59,694 bases of DNA from a virus. Lineage: Duplodnaviria > Caudoviricetes. A program made the position numbers and the translations under genes. The notes beneath the pieces are model-generated. The model had not been told where the DNA came from. It worked only from the letters and a program-made list of their open reading frames with translations, and did no database searches. This document shows, in pieces, positions 1,309 through 16,029 of the stretch. Location of the stretch: IMG/VR virus record IMGVR_UViG_3300017991_000122, positions 1 through 59,694 of that record. One strand, given 5' to 3'. The stretch's first letter is position 1, and each line of letters begins with the position of its first letter.

Positions 1309-1817
1309 CAGGCCCCTACGAATTGCTTCCAGATGTCGGGCGCGGCCTCGGGCAGACGCAGCGGCTCGAGAGGAAGACTGTTCGGGCGCCTCGGTACGCA
1401 GTGCAGGGTCATGCCGGCTTGGTCGGGCGTGCGGCCGTCCTTCTTGGAGTTGCACGCCTTGCAAGCCATCACGATGTTCGTCCACGTCGTCAGACCTCCC
1501 TGACACTTCGGGATGACGTGGTCGTACGTGAGCTTCGACAGCGGCAGCTTCCTCAAGCAGTACTGGCAGCGGTGTCCGTCACGAGCCGCGACGTTCGTCC
1601 GCGAGAACTTGATGCCCTTCTTCGCCGCGCCGAACGGTTTGCGCACGCGAATCACGGCGGGAAGATCCATTTCCACGCTTGGGCTTCGGACCGACTGGCC
1701 CGGATACCCCGCGAGCTGCTCGAACTTCCCCGTGTAGATGCCCGTTATCGCCTCCGTCCACGGGATGATCTGGATCGGCATGTACCAGCTCGTCAGCACC
1801 AGTGTTCTCGCTTCCAT
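1308..1817 (-). CDS. HNH endonuclease (McrA-like)
   Basis: FSRTNVAARDGHRCQYC...LTYDHVIPKCQGG...NIVMACKACNSKK. Confidence 0.92.
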   Translation of the reverse strand: MEARTLVLTSWYMPIQIIPWTEAITGIYTGKFEQLAGYPGQSVRSPSVEMDLPAVIRVRKPFGAAKKGIKFSRTNVAARDGHRCQYCLRKLPLSKLTYDHVIPKCQGGLTTWTNIVMACKACNSKKDGRTPDQAGMTLHCVPRRPNSLPLEPLRLPEAAPDIWKQFVGA

Positions 1818-2058
1818 GACCTACCTCCGTCTCTTCTTTCTCATGATGTTTCTCCTCGAACACGACCCGGCCGTCTACGACGGGCCGTACCTTCAGACGC
1901 TCTCTCCAACGATGATCTGACGGGTAGGGGTGCAGCAAGTCCCTCATCAGGAAATCTGCTTCGTCCTCCGTCTCCACCACGATGCACAGGTAGCGCCGAC
2001 GCAGTTCCATGTCTGCGACGGTCCATCCGTTCTTCCTCTTCACGCGCTTCGTGGTCAT
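1579..2058 (-). CDS. Hypothetical protein (3' part overlaps HNH gene)
   Basis: ATG immediately after the tRNA-Leu 3' end; MTTKRVKRKNGW... Confidence 0.5.
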   Translation of the reverse strand: MTTKRVKRKNGWTVADMELRRRYLCIVVETEDEADFLMRDLLHPYPSDHRWRERLKVRPVVDGRVVFEEKHHEKEETEVGHGSENTGADELVHADPDHPVDGGDNGHLHGEVRAARGVSGPVGPKPKRGNGSSRRDSRAQTVRRGEEGHQVLADERRGS

Positions 2059-2061
2059 GGG

Positions 2062-2135
2062 TGCTCGGGGCGAGATTCGAACTCGCACTGGACGGGTTCT
2101 AAACCCGCTGCCGCTGCCAGTTGGGCTACCCGAGC
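2062..2135 (-). tRNA. tRNA-Leu(TAG), short variable arm
   Basis: Cloverleaf; anticodon arm GCGGG-TTTAGAA-CCCGT; T-loop TTCGAAT. Confidence 0.85.
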
Positions 2136-2366
2136 CTACTTCAAACTGATGGGCTTGTGACGCTCGCCGGGAGGAATCGTCTTGGCTTCCGACGTCACGT
2201 GCACCGTGAGCTTCACCTGGACCCCTTCAGGCGTCCGCACGAGGACAGTCTGGCTTCCTCGAGGGCGTGCCGCACAGAGCAGGTTCTGGAGCTTCGCGGC
2301 GATGTGCCCGTCCAGGTAGACGTGGACCTCGTCACTCTTCTCCCTCACTTCGATCAGCTTGTTCAT
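2136..2366 (-). CDS. Hypothetical protein
   Basis: MNKLIEVREK...; ATG shares the A of the upstream tRNA CCA; stop abuts the next tRNA. Confidence 0.65.
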   Translation of the reverse strand: MNKLIEVREKSDEVHVYLDGHIAAKLQNLLCAARPRGSQTVLVRTPEGVQVKLTVHVTSEAKTIPPGERHKPISLK

Positions 2367-4055: not shown

Positions 4056-4083
4056 ACTCTACTCAGCCCACGCGAACCGTCAA
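4056..4083 (-). promoter_or_regulatory. Sigma70-type promoter
   Basis: TTGACG-16-TAGAGT, T-rich upstream. Confidence 0.6.
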
Positions 4084-4099
4084 GAAAAATCGTACGCGG

Positions 4100-4172
4100 T
4101 GCACGCGGAGGGATTCGAACCCACACTTTGCCGGGTTTAGGCCGGTCGCCTCTGCCGTTGGGCTACGCGCGC
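4100..4172 (-). tRNA. tRNA-Leu(TAA), short variable arm, C33
   Basis: CCGG-CCTAAAC-CCGG; D-arm like the other short Leu tRNAs. Confidence 0.75.
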
Positions 4173-4777
4173 AGCAGCTTGCCGAGGTCTTCCTCGAGCT
4201 TCTCGACCGTCATCGCCTCGAGCTTGCCCTCTGCGGACTCGTAACGGGCCCCTAAGCGCGGCAACGCGAAGCGGACGACGAATCGGTCGTCTTCCTCGTC
4301 ACCGGCCCACAGGACGGCTTCTGCGACCGTCCAGGTGATGGGCTGCTCGAGCTCGAACTTCGGAGGTTGCTCGCCGCCTCCCACCGGGGCGTACGAGAGC
4401 GTGACGTGCGGGTTGTAGTCGGGGAACTTCTTGGAGAACGCCGCGCCGGCCGCGTCGAGGGCCTCGGCGAGTTTGCCACGGAGCTCGTGTAGTTCGTCGC
4501 TCCGCACCTTGCCGATGACCGGGACCTGACCAGGCTTCCAGTCGGGGTTCTCGGGGAAGGAGTCGACCTCGGCAACCGCGACCGGGAACGGCGCCGTGCT
4601 CTGGAAGACCGGAGCTATTGCTTCGATCGCCTTGCACACCTCGCCGATCGGGATCTTGTCGCCGAAGTACACGAGCGTGATGTGGTGCGAACCCTTGCCG
4701 ACCGGGTCGCCGGGAACCTCGACATCGCTCAGGAGCTGTCGGATCTCACGGGGGACTGAGATACCTAGAAACGCCAT
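4163..4777 (-). CDS. 2H phosphoesterase (RNA 2',3'-cyclic phosphodiesterase, LigT/ThpR- or Acb1-like)
   Basis: Two HxT motifs: HHITLVYFG and YNPHVTLSY. Confidence 0.9.
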   Translation of the reverse strand: MAFLGISVPREIRQLLSDVEVPGDPVGKGSHHITLVYFGDKIPIGEVCKAIEAIAPVFQSTAPFPVAVAEVDSFPENPDWKPGQVPVIGKVRSDELHELRGKLAEALDAAGAAFSKKFPDYNPHVTLSYAPVGGGEQPPKFELEQPITWTVAEAVLWAGDEEDDRFVVRFALPRLGARYESAEGKLEAMTVEKLEEDLGKLLRA

Positions 4778-5126: not shown

Positions 5127-5233
5127 AGCGAGGATGATAGCGACCAAGAGAGCTTCCGGACTCGAACCGGCTAGGCATGTTTTGATGACACGCAGTGAAC
5201 CAATCACGATGAACTCCTGATCTACGCCTCGCT
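5127..5233 (-). ncRNA. Y-RNA-like RNA 1 (D, anticodon and T arms; shared stem replaces the acceptor stem)
   Basis: GCGAGGCGTAGATCAGG...CTTGGTCGCTATCATCCTCGC enclosing GTGA/TCAC, GCGTGT-CATCAAA-ACATGC and CCGG-TTCGAGT-CCGG. Confidence 0.75.
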
Positions 5234-5310
5234 TGGAACCGGGACTGGGATTCGAACCCAGACAGTGCCAGCTTCAAAGGCTGGTGACCTACCAATTGGT
5301 CGACCCCGGC
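5234..5310 (-). tRNA. tRNA-Gln(TTG)
   Basis: CCAGC-CTTTGAA-GCTGG, CCA. Confidence 0.9.
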
Positions 5311-5313
5311 AGA

Positions 5314-5448
5314 CGACGAGGATGATGACGCACAAGGTTCCTTGTACCGCGTCCTGACCACTAGACGATCCCGCTTCATAGCGGGAGGAGGATTTGAACC
5401 TCCGTTTCGGGCTTGCAATGCGAAGTAGCCCTGCACTACGCCTCGTCG
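5314..5448 (-). ncRNA. Y-RNA-like RNA 2 (YrlA-type: T-arm, closed acceptor stem, D-arm)
   Basis: Shared stem enclosing GGAGG-TTCAAAT-CCTCC, TCCCGCT-ATGA-AGCGGGA and GTC-TAGTGGTCAG-GAC. Confidence 0.8.
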
Positions 5449-5449
5449 G

Positions 5450-5518
5450 TGGCAGCAGAGGGACACGAACCCTCGCGGTCGCGGATATGAGCCGCGCCTC
5501 CCACCTTGGGATGCTGCC
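5450..5518 (-). tRNA. tRNA-Met(CAT), shortened D-arm (Ile2 not excluded)
   Basis: CGCGG-CTCATAT-CCGCG; T-loop TTCGTGT. Confidence 0.7.
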
Positions 5519-5520
5519 GG

Positions 5521-5596
5521 ATGCGGGAGCAGGATTTGAACCTGCGGTCTCGAGATTATGAAACTCGCGAGGACGACCAGACTCCTCCACCCCGCT
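5521..5596 (-). tRNA. tRNA-Met(CAT), initiator-like
   Basis: 1:72 mismatch, GCGGGGTGGAG 5' end, TTCAAAT T-loop, loop TTCATAA. Confidence 0.8.
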
Positions 5597-5601
5597 ATGA
5601 G

Positions 5602-5673
5602 CGTCCTTCCCCGGAGTCGAACCGGGAACACAACCTTCGGAGGGTTGCATGATCTCCATTTCACCAGAAGGAC
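5602..5673 (-). tRNA. tRNA-Arg(CCG)
   Basis: CAACC-CTCCGAA-GGTTG. Confidence 0.88.
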
Positions 5674-5852
5674 TTGAACCGCCTGCATTGCAGGACGGAT
5701 CGTTTCGACCAATGCCACTGACCGGTGCGCCCACAGCGAGCACACTTCGACCGCCATGTTCTCGGATCCGAGATGCCTCGGAGCATCGCCCAGACGACTC
5801 CTCGGACGTCGCCCAGGGGTCGGCCGTGCTCGTGCGGTTCTGACGTTCTCAT
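5661..5852 (-). CDS. Small hypothetical protein (CxxC)
   Basis: ATG directly after the CCA of tRNA-Arg(ACG). Confidence 0.5.
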   Translation of the reverse strand: MRTSEPHEHGRPLGDVRGVVWAMLRGISDPRTWRSKCARCGRTGQWHWSKRSVLQCRRFKSFW

Positions 5853-9721: not shown

Positions 9722-11323
9722 TCACGGCTTCGGCGCCGTCTCGAGGTCCAGCGACTTCACGTGGTCGGCCAGGGACGTCCATCCCTGCGACGCGAGCGCG
9801 ATGAAGTTGAGGATCTGATCCGACCAACCGGACACGCAGTAGACGTTCTTGTCGTCAGGCGCCATGAGCGCGTGCCCATGAGGCGAGACGTCGATGACGA
9901 AGACCTTCGCCTTGCGGGACAAGGCTACGCGGTACTCCTGAAGGGCCTGCGCGAAGGGCCGACCCATGTTCTGCTCACCGTCAGTCAGCAGGACGACGTT
10001 GTCCACCTTCTCGTTGTCCACACGGAGGATGTCGAGAGCAGCGGACTGGTTGGTACCGCCGCGCGGGTGGACGTGGACTCCCCAGAACTTCTGCGCCTGC
10101 GTGAGCAGGGAGTCGCGCTGGGAGATGCTGATTCGCTTGGCCGAGCCGTCGAAGGCGACGACGTCGCACTTGGCCTTCTTGGCGACCGCGACCGAAAGCA
10201 CGGAAGCCGGGCCGATGAGCGCTCGGGCCGCGTCTGCCGGGGAGGGCGTGTGGTGGAACCAACCCATGCCCGGCTGCATGCTCGGCGAGACGTCGAGCAG
10301 CACGGCGGTCTTGCCTGGGATCTCGGGCACGTTGTCGAACGCGAGCTCGACAGCGTCACGGAGGGCGTCCTTGACCCACGTCGCGGTGACGTGCTTCTCC
10401 GCTTCGATGAACCGAAAAGGCAGGATCTTGGACCGCTGGATGATCTGCGGCGAGGTGAGCTTCCGGAGAACCTCTTCCTTGCACGACTCGATGACCCCTT
10501 GCCGCTCGAGCGTCGCCAGGTTCTTGAGCAGTGCGAAGATCGGAAGGTTCGGCACGAGGGCCTCCCACAGCTTCTTCGAACTCCCGATGAACGGGGTGAC
10601 GACCTCGTGAGGGAGCCGCCCGATCTTGATGGCAGCGATCTTCTCCTCGTCGGTCTTGGCCTTCTTGAGGGCCTCGAACTGCTGAATCTGAGGCAGCGTC
10701 GAGATGTCCACCTTCCGCTTCTCCGACTCACCCATGATGTAGTCGAACAGCGGGCGCGGCTCGCCCGTCTTCGGGTGCACGAGCTGCATGGTGTCGCGAA
10801 GCGTGTAGGAGCCAGCCTTGCGCTCGGTGCCGTACTTGATCGTCCAGTACTCGCTCAGCTTCTCCGTCATCCAGGCGCCGATGACCCGCTTGACCCTACG
10901 GCCTCCGATCGATCCATTCGCCAGAGACGCGTGGATGGTCATGAAGTCGTTCAGGTCGTTGGGCGTGCGGATGACCTCACCGAACGCCTGCGCGAACGCA
11001 AGGCGTGCCTCGGGCCTGGAATCCCTCGCGAGGCATGCGAGCCCGTAGGCCGGCTGCGAGCGCATGTAGCCCTTGTTGCGGGCGAACACGAGCCCCTTCG
11101 CGTAGAACGCGGGGTCGGCCTTGAGCATCTCGGCGTGCACTTCCTTCGTCTGCTCGAGCATGTCGCTCTGCTTCAGGTAGAAGGTGTTGCCGAGCGTGTT
11201 GGTCAGGGTCACCTGAATGAAGCGCTCCGGAAGAGGCAGCGTCCATGCGGGCATCCCGTGGAAGTTCTTGGTGTCTGCCGAACTCGTCGGCGTGCGTCCG
11301 AAAAGGTTCTGTACTCTCGTCAT
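9722..11323 (-). CDS. rsr: Ro60/Rsr-like TROVE-domain RNA-binding protein with vWA domain
   Basis: N-terminal NFHGMPAW..NTFY, KYG..LRDTMQLVHPK, LPIFALLKNLATL, SKILPFRF; vWA DVSPSM, GGTN, LTDGEQN. Confidence 0.9.
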   Translation of the reverse strand: MTRVQNLFGRTPTSSADTKNFHGMPAWTLPLPERFIQVTLTNTLGNTFYLKQSDMLEQTKEVHAEMLKADPAFYAKGLVFARNKGYMRSQPAYGLACLARDSRPEARLAFAQAFGEVIRTPNDLNDFMTIHASLANGSIGGRRVKRVIGAWMTEKLSEYWTIKYGTERKAGSYTLRDTMQLVHPKTGEPRPLFDYIMGESEKRKVDISTLPQIQQFEALKKAKTDEEKIAAIKIGRLPHEVVTPFIGSSKKLWEALVPNLPIFALLKNLATLERQGVIESCKEEVLRKLTSPQIIQRSKILPFRFIEAEKHVTATWVKDALRDAVELAFDNVPEIPGKTAVLLDVSPSMQPGMGWFHHTPSPADAARALIGPASVLSVAVAKKAKCDVVAFDGSAKRISISQRDSLLTQAQKFWGVHVHPRGGTNQSAALDILRVDNEKVDNVVLLTDGEQNMGRPFAQALQEYRVALSRKAKVFVIDVSPHGHALMAPDDKNVYCVSGWSDQILNFIALASQGWTSLADHVKSLDLETAPKP

Positions 11324-11987: not shown

Positions 11988-12287
11988 TCAGCCGATTTCG
12001 TCGGCTTCCCTCTTCTGCGTGAAGAAGTAGAGCCCGTCTTCACCACCACGACGCGTGATGGTCAGGGTCTGGCCGCGCCACCTGAAGGGCCCGTTGCCCA
12101 GTCTCGTGGCGATCTCCTTCACCTTGTCCGAGCGGGCCTTCTTGGCCTTCTCGGCTGCGTCTGTCGCCTCGTTGTAGTCCTCGGTGGACTGCTCGTAGGC
12201 TTCGAACATGGCTTTCTTCTGCGTGGGCGTCATGCCGTTCCCACCATTGCTTCCGCTGTCCGTGCTCTGGCTATCGTCTTTCGCCAT
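11988..12287 (-). CDS. Hypothetical protein
   Basis: MAKDDSQ...; ATG overlaps the CCA of tRNA-Glu. Confidence 0.75.
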   Translation of the reverse strand: MAKDDSQSTDSGSNGGNGMTPTQKKAMFEAYEQSTEDYNEATDAAEKAKKARSDKVKEIATRLGNGPFRWRGQTLTITRRGGEDGLYFFTQKREADEIG

Positions 12288-12362
12288 GGTGCTCCCAAGG
12301 GGATTCGAACCCCTACCTGCGGCTTGAAAGGCCGCCCACCTGACCCTTAGTTAGATGGGAGC
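12287..12362 (-). tRNA. tRNA-Glu(TTC)
   Basis: GCGGC-CTTTCAA-GCCGC, CCA. Confidence 0.88.
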
Positions 12363-12387
12363 ATAACAACTGAGGTTTGATTGTCAA
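12360..12387 (-). promoter_or_regulatory. Sigma70-type promoter overlapping the tRNA-Glu 5' end
   Basis: TTGACA-16-TATGCT with TG extension. Confidence 0.7.
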
Positions 12388-12445
12388 GAGAAAATCGTCG
12401 CCGGCCGTGCAAGGTCACCAGGACGGCTCTGGTAGCGTCGGAGAC

Positions 12446-12700
12446 ATGACACGACCACTGACCCTGCAAGACATCCTGCGACGCCGTGAGCACCCCTTGA
12501 CGTGCGACTGTGAGCGATGTTCTCGAGTAGACGAGCTCGTCGCTCAGACCGTCGAGGTCTTGAGCCCGCGACCGGAATCGAACCGGCTACCTCCGCAGTA
12601 CGAAAGCGGCGTCCTGCCATTAGGACTGCACGGGCAATTGCACGCGGAACCCGACGAGGCAGGTCGAGCTCCACGCGCGCCTCGGAAGAGGACGAACTGA
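12446..12700 (+). CDS. Possible small antisense ORF (HxxxCxCxxC)
   Basis: GGAGAC-ATG, MTRPLTLQDILRRREHPLTCDCERC; 3' half is antisense to tRNA-Thr. Confidence 0.35.
   Translation: MTRPLTLQDILRRREHPLTCDCERCSRVDELVAQTVEVLSPRPESNRLPPQYESGVLPLGLHGQLHAEPDEAGRAPRAPRKRTN
12563..12635 (-). tRNA. tRNA-Thr(CGT)
   Basis: Loop TTCGTAC; acceptor GCCCGTG/CGCGGGC. Confidence 0.85.
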
Positions 12701-12820
12701 TCTGCATCACGCACCGTGTACGCACCCTGTCGATTGGTCACGTGAGCTTTTCCAGCGAGCTGGTGAGCAGCTCGTCCAGGTTCCGTTGGGTTGTCACAGA
12801 CCGTGTCGCATTGCGCGTGC
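12640..12820 (-). ncRNA. ~180-nt rod-shaped RNA, 6S-like candidate
   Basis: GCACGCG/CGCGTGC closing stem, central bubble, GGACGAGCTG/CAGTTCGTCC inner stem. Confidence 0.45.
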
Positions 12821-12826
12821 GACGGT

Positions 12827-12900
12827 TGGCTGGAGCGGAAGGATTCGAACCTTCGTTGACCGGGTCAGAGCCGGGCGTCCTACCGTTGGACGACGCTCCA
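12827..12900 (-). tRNA. tRNA-Gln(CTG)
   Basis: CCGG-CTCTGAC-CCGG, U1:A72, CCA. Confidence 0.9.
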
Positions 12901-12946
12901 TCTCCCTCGAGGGGACTCAAATGCATACCTTCATGATCTCTCCTAG

Positions 12947-13017
12947 TGGGCCCACGAGGAATCGAACCTCGCCCTGCCGGGTAAGAGCCGGATGCTCCGC
13001 CTTGGAGCTATGAGCCC
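12947..13017 (-). tRNA. tRNA-Lys(CTT)
   Basis: CCGG-CTCTTAC-CCGG. Confidence 0.88.
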
Positions 13018-13020
13018 GAG

Positions 13021-13093
13021 TGGGTCCAGCGGGAGTCGAACCCGCAACCGTCAGGGTAAAAGCCTGCTGCGCTACCAGTTGCGCCACGGACCC
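13021..13093 (-). tRNA. tRNA-Lys(TTT)
   Basis: CAGG-CTTTTAC-CCTG. Confidence 0.88.
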
Positions 13094-13138
13094 TCGCACT
13101 GAGTTGGTTGTCGGTTTCTTCTTCATCGCTGTCTCCAG

Positions 13139-13221
13139 TGGGTCGTGAAGGAATCGAACCTCTGTCCCGAAGGCAAGTGGTTTACAGCCACCCGATGGTC
13201 CCAGCCATCTACTCACAACCC
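13139..13221 (-). tRNA. tRNA-Tyr(GTA)
   Basis: GGTGG-CTGTAAA-CCACT, long variable arm. Confidence 0.82.
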
Positions 13222-13222
13222 G

Positions 13223-13261
13223 AAAACGTCGAAAGCCGCCTCTGGTCTCCCAGGGCGGCTC
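13223..13261 (-). terminator. Attenuator terminator hairpin in front of the tRNA array
   Basis: GAGCCGCCCTGG-GAGA-CCAGAGGCGGCTT followed by TCGACGTTTT. Confidence 0.7.
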
Positions 13262-13292
13262 GCGTGTGCTCGGTCTTTCTACGCTTACCGCC

Positions 13293-13442
13293 CTATGGGG
13301 CCTCCTCGAGCATGGGCTTGCTATCCAAGGAGGCATACAGATTACCTTCGCGTCCCTGGATAAACGTCGGGGCCACGACGCACCACGACGCGGACGCTGA
13401 ATGCGCCTGCGTTTTGATGGTGGTGGTGGACCGGGAACTCAT
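13293..13442 (-). CDS. Leaderless 49-aa leader peptide
   Basis: ATG 7 nt after the -10 box; MSSRSTTTIKTQAHSASASWCVVAPTFIQGREGNLYASLDSKPMLEEAP. Confidence 0.65.
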   Translation of the reverse strand: MSSRSTTTIKTQAHSASASWCVVAPTFIQGREGNLYASLDSKPMLEEAP

Positions 13443-13449
13443 AATTGGC

Positions 13450-13477
13450 ACCATAACAGCTAGAAACGAGTTGTCAA
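13450..13477 (-). promoter_or_regulatory. Sigma70-type promoter of the tRNA array
   Basis: TTGACA-16-TATGGT with TG extension, T-rich UP region. Confidence 0.78.
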
Positions 13478-13486
13478 GGAAAAAGT

Positions 13487-14161
13487 TCAGTCCTCGTCTT
13501 CTTCGTCGAGCGTCTGCCCGTGAATCGACTCGCGGAGCATGCCGTCGATCGTCAGGTATACGAGATGGGCTAGCTGAACTTTCTCGTCGGTGGTGAGCAG
13601 TTCCTTGGTGGCCGGCTCCTTCGGCTGGGGGTACGCGATGAAGCCAAGAAGGCTCACCTTGTCGATGGTCTGTTCGGCCACCTTCACCCGCTGCGCCTCG
13701 TTGCCTCCGACCGTACGGAAGAGCCCGTCGTCGGAGAAGGAGATAACCCGATTGACGTGGCGCCACCAGCTCGTGTCCGGCCTCGAGGGTATGGAGCGGT
13801 CGTAGATCGCAAGGTCTCCGGGGTTGGGACGCCAAACTCCCGAACGCACTTCCTTCACGTCGTGCCACTTGCCCGACCAGGGAGATTGCGGATCACGGAC
13901 GTCCGCGACCGCCTCGATGACTCCAGCTCGGTAGCCGTGCGGTGCCTTCTCGTGCGGGAAGAGGGCCTGCTGCATGCACCAACTCGAGAAAGCCATGCAC
14001 CAGTTCGAAGCCGTCAGGTGCAGGAGGGTGTTGCGGTCGCCCCGTACGCAGGGTGCCAGGTACTCCTTCACCCGCTTCCCGGAGTTTGAACCGGGCGGGT
14101 CCTCGAGCACCCCGACCTCGTTCATCGCGACGTCGAGGGCTCGTTCACCGATGGACCTCAC
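13487..14161 (-). CDS. CHAP-domain peptidoglycan hydrolase (endolysin-like)
   Basis: EVGVLEDPPGSNSG..NWCMAFSSWC..PGDLAIY..RHV..TVGGN. Confidence 0.85.
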   Translation of the reverse strand: MRSIGERALDVAMNEVGVLEDPPGSNSGKRVKEYLAPCVRGDRNTLLHLTASNWCMAFSSWCMQQALFPHEKAPHGYRAGVIEAVADVRDPQSPWSGKWHDVKEVRSGVWRPNPGDLAIYDRSIPSRPDTSWWRHVNRVISFSDDGLFRTVGGNEAQRVKVAEQTIDKVSLLGFIAYPQPKEPATKELLTTDEKVQLAHLVYLTIDGMLRESIHGQTLDEEDED

Positions 14162-14751
14162 GCCTGCCTCGCGAGCTCGCGCACGGCGTGCACGATGGTG
14201 CTCCACGCTTCGGCCGGGTGGTGACAGTCGTCTGCTCGAACGTCCATGGGAGCCTCCGTGTTGTACGGCCACGTGATGCCCATCGTCGTCGCACCGGGCC
14301 ATGCTCCCTTGTACGCGGCCAGCTTGTCCGGCGAGTCGTCGATGAACACGTCACCCCTGACCATGTGCTTCGCCGGGGTGAAGATCAAGTGCTTGTGGTC
14401 GATGAACGGAGCGTGCCTCTCGAGCCACGTCATCTTGCCGTTCACGGCCTCCTTCGAGCGGCCCATGGAGCTCAGGATGAAGATGCGGTGCCCGTCGCCG
14501 CGAAGCTGGGCTAGTCCCTCGACGCCTCCCTCGAGCGGCTCGAGCTGTTCGAACCACCCCGGCATGTTGATGTACTTGTAGATGTCACGCCCGATCGGCG
14601 TGAGCTTATGCATCGCGTGCTGGGTGATGTCAGCAATGCTGAGCTCTTCCTCGTCGCACTCCGCGTAGTCGGCGTTGTAGCAGGCGAGCCACGGCTTGAT
14701 CAGGTTGCACAGGATGCCGTCCATGTCGCAGAGGATGTCCAAGGTCTTCAT
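14158..14751 (-). CDS. 5'(3')-deoxyribonucleotidase (HAD, NT5C family)
   Basis: DMDGIL...KHMVRGDVFIDDSP. Confidence 0.9.
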   Translation of the reverse strand: MKTLDILCDMDGILCNLIKPWLACYNADYAECDEEELSIADITQHAMHKLTPIGRDIYKYINMPGWFEQLEPLEGGVEGLAQLRGDGHRIFILSSMGRSKEAVNGKMTWLERHAPFIDHKHLIFTPAKHMVRGDVFIDDSPDKLAAYKGAWPGATTMGITWPYNTEAPMDVRADDCHHPAEAWSTIVHAVRELARQA

Positions 14752-15386
14752 CAGTACTCCAATTGCCTTTCAGCGAGAGGCGTCAGATCAAGTAGCTCAA
14801 CAGTACCACGACTGACGGGGTTGCCAGCCTCCCAAACCATCCAAGCATACTCGATGCTGTCGGTGCCGCCGCCCTTCGCGAAGGAGGGTCGGTTCGGGAG
14901 GATGAAGGTGTGGTTCGGGGCTCGTTTCGAAAGCAGTTCGTGCCGCTTCCTCGCGCCCCAGTAGTTCAGGCGAAGCAGCATGACGACGAGGTCGGCGAGC
15001 TCGAGCTGTGCCAGCAAGAATTCGGTCGCGATGCTGAAGGGAGGGTTCGTGATGGACAGGTCGTAGGGCCGGAAACCGGAGCCAGGCATGAGCGCGATGT
15101 CGGGAGTCCAGTGCAGGAAGTCCTCGGGGATGTACAACGACGAGATGTTCGGGATGAGGTTCAAGTTGATCTTGCACATCTTCCGAATCTCGACGGCCGT
15201 CCAGGTGAGCCCGCTGTACCTGTCGTTCACCGCTTCGATGATGCGTCCCTCGCCGGCTGCCGGTTCCAAACAACGGCAACGGGGCAGCGCTAGCGGGTAC
15301 CGCTCGAGCAGGCGCCTGACGGCCCACTTGGGCGTGTTGTAGGCGTCCGCTTCGCTTCGTTGTCCACCTCTGTTCGTCGAGCTCAT
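14751..15386 (-). CDS. DNA N6-adenine (amino) methyltransferase
   Basis: YNTP, LEPAAGEG, ITNPPFS. Confidence 0.85.
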   Translation of the reverse strand: MSSTNRGGQRSEADAYNTPKWAVRRLLERYPLALPRCRCLEPAAGEGRIIEAVNDRYSGLTWTAVEIRKMCKINLNLIPNISSLYIPEDFLHWTPDIALMPGSGFRPYDLSITNPPFSIATEFLLAQLELADLVVMLLRLNYWGARKRHELLSKRAPNHTFILPNRPSFAKGGGTDSIEYAWMVWEAGNPVSRGTVELLDLTPLAERQLEY

Positions 15387-15826: not shown

Positions 15827-16029
15827 ATTCCCGGAAGTAGGAGGTGCCTTCGGGGATTGGCCTTGAACCGATCCTCCTCCTCGGGCTCCACCCACACCTT
15901 TTCGGGTACCTCGACCCATTCGTCGTCCTCCTGCACGAAAACCTCGTAGCGGCGCTCCACCCACCGGAGCCCGGAGCACTTGATCTTCTGCTCGCGGAGC
16001 CACGCGGTGAGCGTCAATCCACGCTTCAT
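15823..16029 (-). CDS. Hypothetical protein (leaderless)
   Basis: ATG 6 nt after the -10 box. Confidence 0.7.
   Translation of the reverse strand: MKRGLTLTAWLREQKIKCSGLRWVERRYEVFVQEDDEWVEVPEKVWVEPEEEDRFKANPRRHLLLPGM

Follow-up and report, generated by a model that had tools for sequence, protein, structure and literature searches.

A predicted leader ORF that uses all 20 amino acids, followed by a hairpin that may act as a switchable terminator, was found in front of the tRNA genes of a virus (Duplodnaviria; Caudoviricetes), and the arrangement recurs in distant relatives, which suggests that the phage makes its own tRNAs only when translation falters. The window analysed is the whole stretch of 59,694 nucleotides (IMG/VR record IMGVR_UViG_3300017991_000122, positions 1 to 59,694). 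The element was interpreted as classical ribosome-mediated transcription attenuation applied to tRNA genes, with a probability of roughly 0.75. The observation made in an earlier note, that a promoter, a 49-codon ORF with all 20 amino acids and a stop codon inside a stretch complementary to a hairpin arm precede the first tRNA, was confirmed. Its core interpretation, that a ribosome terminating on the leader masks an antiterminator so that a terminator forms in front of the tRNA genes, with the 20 amino acids as a designed property, was supported by the comparison with relatives, although three of its further points were not supported or were left without a test, as described below.

Sequence features of the element

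All features lie on the minus strand (Table 1). The promoter matches 10 of 12 consensus positions and has an extended -10. A scan of positions 12000-15000 found 2 promoter-like sites, against 0.5 expected from shuffles. The ATG follows the -10 box after 7 nt (the ORF starts 8 nt after the box). The stretch UAGGGCGGU (13295-13287), which contains the stop codon, pairs with GCCGCCCUG (13259-13251) in the 5' arm of a hairpin ending 13 nt before tRNA-Tyr.

Table 1. Coordinates of the predicted attenuator and the first genes of the tRNA array.
Position	Strand	Feature	Supporting observations
13450..13477	-	Sigma-70-type promoter: -35 TTGACA (13477-13472), 16-nt spacer ending in TG-n (TGT), -10 TATGGT (13455-13450)	One of a family of similar promoters on this strand (16063, 12387, 6488, 3820), three of which have an ATG 6-7 nt after the -10 box
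13293..13442	-	Leader ORF (13442-13296); ATG (13442-13440) at the predicted transcript start, so the mRNA would be leaderless; 49 codons, stop TAG at 13295-13293, all 20 amino acids, 35 distinct codons	No protein homologue apart from its own record; an ORF in the same position in 8 relatives
13287..13295	-	5' strand of the predicted antiterminator; includes the stop codon and pairs with 13259-13251	In the nascent RNA folded up to 13251, 8 of the 9 pairs have probability 0.96-1.0 and the ninth 0.61; antiterminator region dG -23.6 kcal/mol; duplex test against random segments p=0.017
13262..13284	-	Small internal hairpin (GCGU 13284-13281 with ACGC 13265-13262) closing the loop of the antiterminator	Comparable small hairpins between the two antiterminator strands in the minimum-energy folds of the relatives' nascent RNAs
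13235..13260	-	Predicted terminator hairpin: 11 pairs, one bulged A, GAGA loop; 5' arm (13259-13251) shared with the antiterminator	dG -25.4 kcal/mol for 13264-13230; homologous in position to canonical terminators in 8 relatives
13222..13234	-	Interrupted U-rich tail (UUU CGACG UUUU C) between the hairpin and tRNA-Tyr	Weaker than in the relatives, which have 4-9 consecutive U; not called by the generic terminator scans
13138..13221	-	tRNA-Tyr(GTA), first gene of the array	Order Tyr-Lys-Lys-Gln shared with relative G010
12562..13093	-	tRNA-Lys(TTT), Lys(CTT), Gln(CTG) and Thr(CGT), the remaining genes before the next internal promoter at 12387	

The composition of the leader exceeds chance. 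Of 11,647 49-residue windows of this phage's own long ORFs, 0.69% hold all 20 amino-acid types and 0.38% hold 35 or more distinct codons, and none of 135 small ORFs of 40-60 aa in the window holds all 20. With the start Met granted, the figure is 1.1-1.5%. The earlier note had also remarked that many codons end in A or T despite the high GC, but this is not notable, since the share is 24% (12 of 49 codons), against about 18% in the phage's genes. Codon usage of the leader is atypical. Its score is lower than that of 96% of in-frame 49-codon windows of the phage's genes, though higher than that of 86% of off-frame windows.

Three of the strong promoters of this family in the window have an ATG 6-7 nt after the -10 box, which argues that leaderless translation is a design feature here. 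In a different reading the ORF is an ordinary small phage gene with its own terminator, translated from a leaderless mRNA like the 68-aa and 80-aa ORFs behind sister promoters, and the tRNA genes are expressed by leak-through or from other promoters without regulatory coupling. Leaderless small ORFs behind the same promoter type exist at 16029 and 3784 (the second abuts tRNA-Val), a gene caller called the leader as a 53-aa protein, and internal promoters exist. This reading was considered unlikely. No homologue of the peptide other than its own record was found among 1.84 billion representative proteins, the peptides of syntenic relatives are nearly unalignable, the codon usage is atypical, and a terminator between a promoter and the genes it faces, with a competing helix placed at the stop codon in 9 of 9 elements (see below), is not expected for a plain gene.

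The earlier note had proposed that the element switches on the tRNA/Y-RNA/Ro60 array. Control of the whole array, including the Y-like RNAs and Ro60, is doubtful. Further consensus promoters lie inside the array at 12387, 6488 and 3820, with a weaker match (9 of 12) at 4083, so that the element cannot be the only control of the 38 tRNA genes. Only Tyr, Lys, Lys, Gln and Thr lie before the next promoter.

Search for related elements

Searches with single genes found no close relative of the phage. A phage collection gave no match to the leader DNA or to the neighbouring CHAP-domain protein, and single-protein locus searches with the CHAP protein, the leader peptide (74 pattern hits, none related), Ro60 and the tail sheath found no relative. 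PHROGs has no family for the peptide. An alignment of CHAP homologues gave loci, but synteny is not kept. Of 22 such loci checked for tRNAs, only one (L002) had any, and those are divergent. The nearest relatives of Ro60 are mostly cellular, at about 47% identity, and were of no use as an anchor. A promoter-plus-ATG pattern scan, which was not exhaustive, returned unrelated low-GC phages. The tRNA sequences themselves are too diverged for pattern searches.

Relatives were reached through a tail-sheath alignment, and 72 records were then searched for tRNAs. Ten relatives' records (designated by G numbers) had at least 5 tRNA hits. Eight of these carry a promoter, a short ORF, an antiterminator strand near the stop codon, a canonical terminator and then tRNAs at the head of the main array. 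The other two, G043 and G045, which have identical sequence there, show no such element upstream of their first tRNA. Small tRNA clusters in relatives lack it too, and the heads of small clusters in G003 and G005 showed nothing similar. A DNA search of 50 relatives' records with the leader plus tRNA-Tyr found nothing, not even G010, and was too insensitive to count as evidence. A scan of genome contigs with the sheath alignment gave only 7 distant prophage-like sheaths, and a 24-nt pattern from the G034 type found only the two records already identified.

Alternative folds and terminators

Folding of the alternative structures had been named in the earlier note as a check. In the window the two folds are mutually exclusive and share nine nucleotides. 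In 9 of 9 elements (the window and eight relatives) the minimum-energy fold of the nascent RNA pairs the terminator's 5' arm with a stretch lying -21 to +8 nt from the first base of the stop codon. A ribosome footprint is about 28-30 nt, so the strand is placed where a ribosome at the stop codon covers it, although in G076 it lies at -19 to -14, at the edge of what a terminating ribosome would cover. The paired cores differ from lineage to lineage: GGGCGG/CCGCCC, GACCCCUUC/GAAGGGGUC, GGCCCUUU/AAAGGGCC, GGAGGCC/GGCCUCC, GGGUGGCU/AGCCACCC and CCGGGGG/CUCCCGG. Duplex strength against random 38-nt segments gave p from 0.0007 to 0.27, the complementarity being weak on its own in G010 (p=0.27). Fisher's combined p over 8 elements is 4e-9, with G032, a near twin of G034, left out. 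MAFFT does not put the helices of the different sequence classes in register and no structural alignment could be built; no formal covariation test, pair count, alignment fold or covariance model was therefore run, and covariation is reported from the per-element folds and duplex tests.

The relatives' terminators are canonical, with 4-9 U directly after the stem. The stop codon lies 26-35 nt before the core hairpin in all nine elements (20-35 nt if the longer stems also found are taken), the value for the window being read separately. In the window the hairpin is strong, but the U-tract is interrupted and neither the generic scan nor a stricter terminator finder calls it; it may be leaky or weak, and these observations do not settle whether it is an intrinsic terminator.

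A further reading is that the ORF is open by chance, the region being an untranslated 5' leader of the tRNA precursor and the hairpin serving RNA processing or stability. Strong hairpins sit directly upstream of several other tRNAs in the window (for example at 12678-12640, 9711-9686 and 6603-6568), high-GC DNA carries many spurious ORFs, and the window's U-tract is poor. This reading was considered very unlikely, because an open frame of 21 codons (G023) or 49-64 codons (the other eight), ending at the antiterminator, is kept in 9 of 9 diverged elements through indels, the composition statistics argue against chance, and the relatives have canonical U-tracts.

Rfam families were also searched. 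At gathering scores the whole window matched only tRNA, and at E up to 1 over 13150-13520 the only hits were weak tmRNA-model matches on the tRNA-Tyr part, so that no curated leader or riboswitch family (Trp, His, Leu and Thr leaders, T-box) was matched.

Leader composition

Codon-diverse leaders upstream of tRNA arrays in related phages, which the earlier note had set as a test, were found. The peptides are nearly unalignable. In an alignment of 5 of them only the start Met and one Pro are invariant, and BLASTP of the window's peptide against that of G010 gives E=0.44. Yet all 8 leaders before large arrays (the window and seven relatives) hold all 20 amino acids in 49-64 codons, and 5-8 amino acids occur exactly once in each. 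The chance per leader is 1.3-5.7% from the phages' own proteins and 1.2-11% from shuffled open frames. The product over the 6 test leaders is 2.7e-9 and 4.4e-8, respectively; the window and G032 were left out. The start codon is a choice in some relatives. G034 holds all 20 types only from an in-frame GTG with a Shine-Dalgarno-like GGGG 7 nt upstream, and 19 from its ATG, and G076, G048 and G051 have Met only as the initiator. Between the close pair G034 and G032 the only His, Ile and internal Met codons sit at different positions, although retention of all 20 types between these two is not improbable on its own (p about 0.11-0.14 under 38 random base changes).

The eighth relative, G023, provides a natural control. 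Its array holds only Tyr, Ser, Leu, Ser, Leu, Leu, Leu, with no further tRNA in the 2.2 kb downstream, and its 21-codon leader contains the run LLSSYYLLSS. There are no tandem runs in the all-20 leaders, and the arrays behind them cover 18-20 amino-acid types in the six records that are not cut short (in G032 and G051 the record ends after 7 and 12 tRNAs). Which leader codons the phage's own tRNAs can read was counted by hand only. The regulatory codons are cognate to the regulated product in both kinds of leader.

Proposed mechanism

In the proposed mechanism, transcription starts at or next to the ATG, so that a ribosome can load on the 5' end and translate the leader. If every codon is decoded promptly, the ribosome reaches the stop codon and covers 13295-13287, the 5' arm of the downstream hairpin is free to form the terminator, and RNA polymerase stops before tRNA-Tyr. 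If the ribosome stalls earlier because some charged tRNA is scarce, or if the leader is not translated at all, 13295-13287 pairs with 13259-13251, the terminator cannot form and the tRNA genes are transcribed. Because the leader holds all 20 amino acids and 35 codons, shortage of almost any tRNA can open the gate for read-through from the promoter at 13477, and the tRNAs made downstream would close it again. The analysis itself established the sequence features, the two mutually exclusive folds, their conservation with changed sequences in relatives, and the match between leader composition and the downstream tRNA set, whereas the transcript start, translation of the ORF, termination at the hairpin, and the direction and physiological trigger of the switch were inferred. 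Dependence of termination on leader translation was not measured. No RNA data were listed among the sequencing runs examined; only the probable source run covers the leader, the other two touch only tRNA-like stretches, and neither expression nor microdiversity was read. The trigger proposed in the earlier note, host anticodon nucleases, rests on inference alone and was not tested.

It is also possible, though unlikely, that the attenuator senses translation in general (ribosome availability, host shut-off, or any inhibitor of translation), with no sensing role for the all-20 composition. The default fold without a ribosome is the antiterminator, so any loss of translation opens the gate, and known uORF attenuators respond to many kinds of ribosome stalling (PMC12121999; PMC10274678). 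One codon per amino acid should, by inference, give a weaker stall than the tandem codons of classical leaders. A pure capacity sensor, however, needs neither the 20 amino acids kept in all 8 leaders before large arrays despite near-complete sequence divergence, nor the run of exactly Leu, Ser and Tyr before the Tyr/Ser/Leu-only array.

Comparison with known systems

Classical attenuators of amino-acid biosynthesis operons (trp, his, leu, thr, ilv and pheA leaders) have a promoter-proximal short ORF, a stop codon next to the 5' strand of an antiterminator, and a mutually exclusive antiterminator and intrinsic terminator (general principle, PMC1183508). The element shares with them the short ORF, the position of the stop codon and two mutually exclusive folds, and the G023 variant also a run of regulatory codons cognate to the regulated product. 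Here the regulated genes are tRNA genes of a phage rather than biosynthetic enzymes, most leaders sample all 20 amino acids without a tandem run, and the window's leader mRNA appears leaderless. No anti-antiterminator (a 1:2-type hairpin) is evident, so lack of translation should give read-through rather than termination.

Leaderless polycysteine short ORFs are reported to act as cysteine-responsive attenuators in mycobacteria (bioRxiv 10.1101/834739), where a leaderless short ORF as first cistron likewise reports amino-acid supply to the genes downstream. That system is cellular, senses one amino acid and regulates protein-coding operons; whether it uses a terminator/antiterminator pair was not examined. 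In uORF attenuators that sense translation stress (whiB7 uORF, PMC10274678; topAI uORF, PMC12121999; vmlR, PMC9226507), ribosome stalling on a short upstream ORF switches on the downstream genes in response to broad classes of translation stress. They respond to antibiotics or one amino acid and control resistance or stress genes, and none is reported with an all-amino-acid leader or with tRNA genes as the output. The trn operon of Anabaena, with 26 tRNA genes, is a large accessory array that is normally silent and is induced by translational stress (PMC10272220), but control is by a protein repressor, TrcR, at the promoter, and the words leader, attenuat- and terminator do not occur in the main text of that paper. 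T-box riboswitches are cis-acting leader RNAs with a terminator/antiterminator choice that reports the state of a tRNA, but they bind one uncharged tRNA directly, without a ribosome or an ORF, and regulate synthetase and amino-acid genes. No T-box match was found here.

Implications

Phage tRNA arrays are now discussed as a counter to host defences that cut or deplete tRNAs (PMC12409363), and how phages regulate them is little known. No description of such a leader was found in the literature searched, which excluded most subscription journals. An attenuator whose leader samples all 20 amino acids would be the first cis-acting sensor of the whole decoding capacity of a cell, and would extend leader-peptide attenuation from biosynthetic operons to tRNA genes. 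The idea is directly testable and the variants give built-in controls, since the all-20 leader should answer to any single tRNA shortage and the Leu/Ser/Tyr leader to those three only. The element could also serve as a compact reporter of tRNA depletion.

A broader reading, held only tentatively, is that large phages of this lineage run their tRNA genes on demand. In this view a universal decoding sensor acting in cis keeps the array off while the host's tRNA pool works and switches it on when any tRNA is depleted, for instance by host tRNA-cleaving defence nucleases or by infection-induced tRNA decay, and the new tRNAs close the loop. The codon content of the leader would co-evolve with the tRNA set behind it, with all 20 amino acids before full arrays and Leu/Ser/Tyr before a Leu/Ser/Tyr cluster.

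Sequence analysis of the window

The window is a fragment of 59,694 bases from an uncultivated virus, estimated to be about 35% complete, with a G+C content of 62%. Genes run on the minus strand and include those for myovirus tail parts (sheath, baseplate and tape measure). 38 tRNA genes are interspersed with a Ro60 orthologue and other small genes. Nothing in the GenBank phage collection resembled the window at DNA level or for the neighbouring gene. The Ro60 orthologue (TROVE and Ro60 vWA domains) lies inside the tRNA array, and its nearest relatives are one metagenomic protein at 55% identity and mostly cellular proteins at about 47%, whereas known actinophage Ro-like proteins are only about 24% identical. 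A 2',5' RNA ligase / LigT-like phosphoesterase among the tRNA genes also has a marginal match to the anti-CBASS Acb1 family. The CHAP-domain gene upstream of the leader is probably 224 aa rather than the 271-aa maximal ORF, because its homologues cover only that part, and it would then no longer overlap the NT5C-like gene.

The earlier note had described a promoter, a leader ORF with all 20 amino acids, and a stop codon placed in a stretch complementary to the 5' arm of a hairpin before the first tRNA, and each of these features was confirmed. The ATG lies where transcription should start, and the ORF has 49 codons, 20 amino-acid types and 35 distinct codons. Only 0.69% of 11,647 49-residue windows from the phage's own long ORFs hold all 20 types, and only 0.38% hold 35 or more distinct codons. 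The note had also remarked that many codons end in A or T, but their share (12 of 49) is close to the average of the genes and is not remarkable. Coordinates of the features are collected below.

Coordinates of the leader region and of other features in the window and in related or compared loci
Record	Feature	Coordinates	Strand	Description
Window	Promoter	13477-13450	minus	TTGACA, 16 nt, TATGGT, extended -10 box
Window	Leader ORF start (ATG)	13442	minus	7 nt after the -10 box
Window	Leader ORF stop (TAG)	13295-13293	minus	
Window	5' strand of the antiterminator	13295-13287	minus	Nine bases from the stop codon onward
Window	5' arm of the hairpin	13259-13251	minus	Complementary to 13295-13287
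Window	Hairpin	13260-13235	minus	Followed by UUU CGACG UUUU C
Window	tRNA-Tyr	13221	minus	Follows the hairpin and its U-rich stretch
Window	tRNA genes (38)	13221 to 2060	minus	
Window	Promoter and leaderless ORF	16063-15823	minus	68-aa ORF from 16029
Window	Promoter and leaderless ORF	3820-3542	minus	80-aa ORF from 3784, ending 10 nt inside the predicted tRNA-Val (3551)
Window	Promoter and predicted tRNA-Glu	12387-12287	minus	
Window	Promoter and predicted tRNA-Glu	6488-6387	minus	
Window	Candidate non-coding RNA	4097-3893	minus	After a promoter-like site at 4083
Window	Ro60 orthologue	9722-11323	minus	
Window	LigT-like phosphoesterase	4163-4777	minus	
Window	Hairpin before tRNA-Thr(CGT)	12678-12640	minus	
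Window	Hairpin before tRNA-Pro(TGG)	9711-9686	minus	
Window	Hairpin before tRNA-Thr(TGT)	6603-6568	minus	
Window	CHAP-domain gene	13487-14302	minus	
Window	NT5C-like gene	14158-14751		
Locus L348	Inserted ORF	5203-5769		
Locus L364	Inserted ORF	about 1810-2262		
Locus L002	Mini-ORF region	1090-1018	minus	

The whole leader folds more stably than any of 200 shuffles (z = -3.75). Folding of the alternative structures, proposed in the earlier note as a test, was done on RNA ending at 13251, before the 3' arm of the terminator exists. The stop-codon stretch then paired with the 5' arm of the hairpin, with eight of the nine pairs at a probability of 0.96-1.0. The antiterminator region has -23.6 kcal/mol and the terminator -25.4 kcal/mol, and without a ribosome the antiterminator should therefore win co-transcriptionally. 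Generic terminator scans did not call the hairpin of the window, because only three U follow the stem. Three further strong hairpins (-20 to -34 kcal/mol) sit 4-6 nt upstream of tRNA-Thr(CGT), tRNA-Pro(TGG) and tRNA-Thr(TGT), none with a U-tract, and may be processing or punctuation signals. A stretch of about 200 nt after the promoter-like site at 4083 has no ORF, folds at -84 kcal/mol and ends in a hairpin followed by UUUU just before tRNA-Ile(TAT), and is a candidate non-coding RNA close to the Ro60 region.

The promoter belongs to a family on this strand (16063, 13477, 12387, 6488 and 3820). Three members have an ATG 6-7 nt after the -10 box, opening ORFs of 68, 49 and 80 codons, and leaderless translation looks like a design feature of this phage. 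The 68-aa ORF also holds all 20 amino acids. Against coding, the codon usage of the leader scored below 96% of in-frame windows of real genes, though above 86% of off-frame windows. No homologue of the peptide was found among 1.84 billion representative proteins, where the only full-length hit was its own record, called as 53 aa, and the other 9 hits were short, repeated stretches in proteins of 406-1102 aa. The two predicted tRNA-Glu genes start at or inside the -10 box of consensus promoters and share a conserved segment just after it. A transcript starting 6-8 nt after the -10 box would lack the 5' end of the tRNA, and they may be tRNA-like or Y-like RNAs rather than tRNAs. The same promoter-plus-ATG arrangement (TTGACAA, 13-14 nt, TGTTAT..T, 6-7 nt, ATG) occurs two or three times per contig in three unrelated viral contigs of 42-44% G+C (L198, L177 and L213), and leaderless early genes behind this promoter type may be widespread.

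Identification of relatives

Searches with single proteins recovered no relatives of the phage. Homologues of the upstream CHAP-domain protein exist, but their neighbourhoods differ. The tail sheath has many relatives at 50-78% identity, and an alignment of 22 of them recovered 80 viral contigs. 72 of those records were searched for tRNAs, and ten had at least 5 tRNA hits (records G010, G034, G052, G048, G051, G043, G045, G076, G032 and G023). The head of the array was read in all ten.

Eight of the ten records carry the element (G010, G034, G032, G076, G052, G048, G051 and G023). In each, a consensus-like promoter is followed by an ORF of 21-64 codons and then by a hairpin with 4-9 U directly after the stem, with the first tRNA of the main array 14-566 nt further on. 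G010 has a sheath 77% identical over the part present in the record, the same gene order as the window (Tyr, Lys, Lys, Gln and onward) and a homologous head. G043 and G045 have identical sequence at this place and show no such element upstream of their first tRNA, and small clusters of 1-5 tRNAs in other relatives also lack it. In G052 (locus L353) and G051 (L355) a tRNA-Met(CAT) gene lies between the promoter and the leader ORF, abutting the promoter with only about 6 nt after the -10 box, and G048 (L354) has a similar sequence there that was not called by ARAGORN. The anticodon stem ends in GGG/CCC in G051, a hallmark of initiator tRNA, and an initiator tRNA would thus lie outside the gate.

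In G010, G032 and G023 an extra ORF is inserted exactly between the terminator and the first tRNA (L348, L364 and, for G023, L365 between terminator and tRNA-Tyr). It is an Endonuclease VII family protein in G032 and a weak HNH match below the cut-off in G010, and the one stretch scanned in G023 gave no match. This looks like a hot spot for homing-type nucleases. In the loci L002, L358 and L359, mini-ORFs of 9-11 codons, each with four Leu codons and in L002 also one Tyr, end 1-2 nt before a GC-rich hairpin without a U-tract. The hairpin directly precedes Leu (and in L002 Tyr) tRNA genes, and in L358 and L359 the mini-ORFs lie upstream of tRNA-Leu(GAG). This may be a second, smaller kind of matched leader, of unclear logic because no competing helix was seen.

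Conservation of the competing helices

Nascent RNA from the ORF start to the terminator loop was folded for the window and the eight relatives. In 9 of 9 elements the minimum-energy fold pairs the 5' arm of the terminator with a stretch lying between -21 and +8 nt of the first base of the stop codon, and the paired cores differ between lineages. Each duplex between the stop region and the arm was compared with random 38-nt segments of these phages, and Fisher's combination over eight elements, with G032 left out as a near twin of G034, gave 4e-9. MAFFT could not put the helices of the different classes in register, and no formal column-wise covariation count was therefore run. The stop codon lies 26-35 nt before the core hairpin in all nine (20-35 nt if the longer stems are taken).

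Paired cores, duplex p values, lengths of the leaders before large arrays, and amino-acid types covered by the arrays behind them
Element	Paired core	Duplex p	Leader length (aa)	Amino-acid types covered by the array
Window	GGGCGG-type / CCGCCC	0.017	49	19 (Ser missing; the record is cut at the far end of the array)
G010	GGGCGG-type / CCGCCC	0.27	64	20
G076	GGGCGG-type / CCGCCC	0.030	50	19
G034	GACCCCUUC / GAAGGGGUC	0.004	60	18
G032	GACCCCUUC / GAAGGGGUC	0.009	60	Record ends after 7 tRNAs
G052	GGCCCUUU / AAAGGGCC	0.0007	63	18
G048	GGAGGCC / GGCCUCC	0.031	60	18
G051	GGGUGGCU / AGCCACCC	0.0075	58	Record ends after 12 tRNAs
G023	CCGGGGG / CUCCCGG	0.0025		

Amino-acid content of the leaders

In an alignment of five of the leaders only the start Met and one Pro are invariant, and BLASTP of the window against G010 gave E = 0.44. 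All eight leaders in front of large arrays nevertheless hold all 20 amino-acid types, with between five and eight amino acids occurring exactly once in each. G034 reaches 20 types only from an in-frame GTG that has a Shine-Dalgarno-like GGGG 7 nt upstream (G032 has GGAG at the same spot); from its ATG, G034 has 19 types and lacks His. G076, G048 and G051 have Met only as the initiator. Chance expectations were calculated with the start Met granted. From 103 long ORFs of the window and G010 these were 1.3% at 49 aa, rising to 5.7% at 64 aa, and from shuffled, still-open versions of each leader 1.2-11%. Among all 391 small ORFs of 45-70 codons in the window and G010, 6 hold all 20 types, and one of those is the G010 leader itself.

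The window was treated as the source of the hypothesis and G032 was dropped, and the product over the six test leaders was then 2.7e-9 (long ORFs) or 4.4e-8 (shuffled frames). These leaders share ancestry, so the products overstate independence, but inheritance cannot explain retention when the sequences have diverged this far. Rare residues also move. Between the close pair G034 and G032 there are 38 base differences and 15 amino-acid differences, and retention in that pair alone is not improbable (p about 0.11-0.14). The only His, the only Ile and the only internal Met sit at different positions in the two.

G023 provides a natural control. Its array is Tyr, Ser, Leu, Ser, Leu, Leu, Leu, with nothing more in the 2.2 kb that follow. 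Its leader is 21 codons from the ATG and contains the run LLSSYYLLSS, placed directly upstream of the antiterminator strand as in classical attenuators. The match between codons and anticodons was counted by hand only, under standard wobble rules. 9 of the 10 codons in the run can be read by those seven tRNAs, TCC being the exception, and 39 of the 48 non-initiator codons of the window leader can be read by the 38 tRNAs seen, the exceptions being the 8 Ser codons and CCC.

Comparison with described systems and interpretation

The element fits the sequence-level criteria of a leader-peptide attenuator, except that the hairpin of the window has an interrupted U-tract where all eight relatives have a canonical terminator, and it matches no curated Rfam family. 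The nearest precedents are the amino-acid biosynthesis leaders (PMC1183508), leaderless polycysteine ORF attenuators of mycobacteria (10.1101/834739) and uORFs that sense translation stress, as at whiB7, topAI and vmlR. For the physiology, the nearest is the Anabaena trn operon of 26 tRNA genes, which is induced by translational stress but through the repressor TrcR, and the main text of that paper never mentions a leader, attenuation or a terminator (PMC10272220). Literature searches for a leader with all amino acids, or for attenuation of phage tRNA arrays or tRNA operons, found nothing pertinent, in a collection without most subscription journals. The mechanism itself is known; the output (tRNA genes), the carrier (a phage lineage) and the sensor design (all 20 amino acids, or the matching subset) are new to our knowledge.

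The best reading is classical ribosome-mediated attenuation, and a probability of about 0.75 was assigned to a translation-coupled attenuator tuned to the tRNA set. The core interpretation of the earlier note, in which a ribosome reaching the stop masks the antiterminator and transcription terminates, is supported by independent relatives. The analysis itself demonstrates the features, the competing folds, their conservation with changed sequence, and the match between leader content and tRNA set, while the transcript start, translation, termination, and the direction of the switch and its trigger were inferred. Depletion of tRNAs by host defence nucleases is one plausible trigger, and codon-usage mismatch and host tRNA decay are others, none of which was tested. 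In the window the element can gate only transcripts from the promoter at 13477, and five tRNA genes lie before the next internal promoter at 12387. In this reading, a ribosome that decodes the whole leader arrives at the stop codon and covers the 5' strand of the antiterminator, the terminator forms while the polymerase is at the U-tract, and transcription ends before the tRNAs. A ribosome held up at any earlier codon, or no ribosome at all, leaves the strand free, and the antiterminator forms and the tRNA genes are transcribed. The products, tRNAs, would relieve the stall and close the loop.
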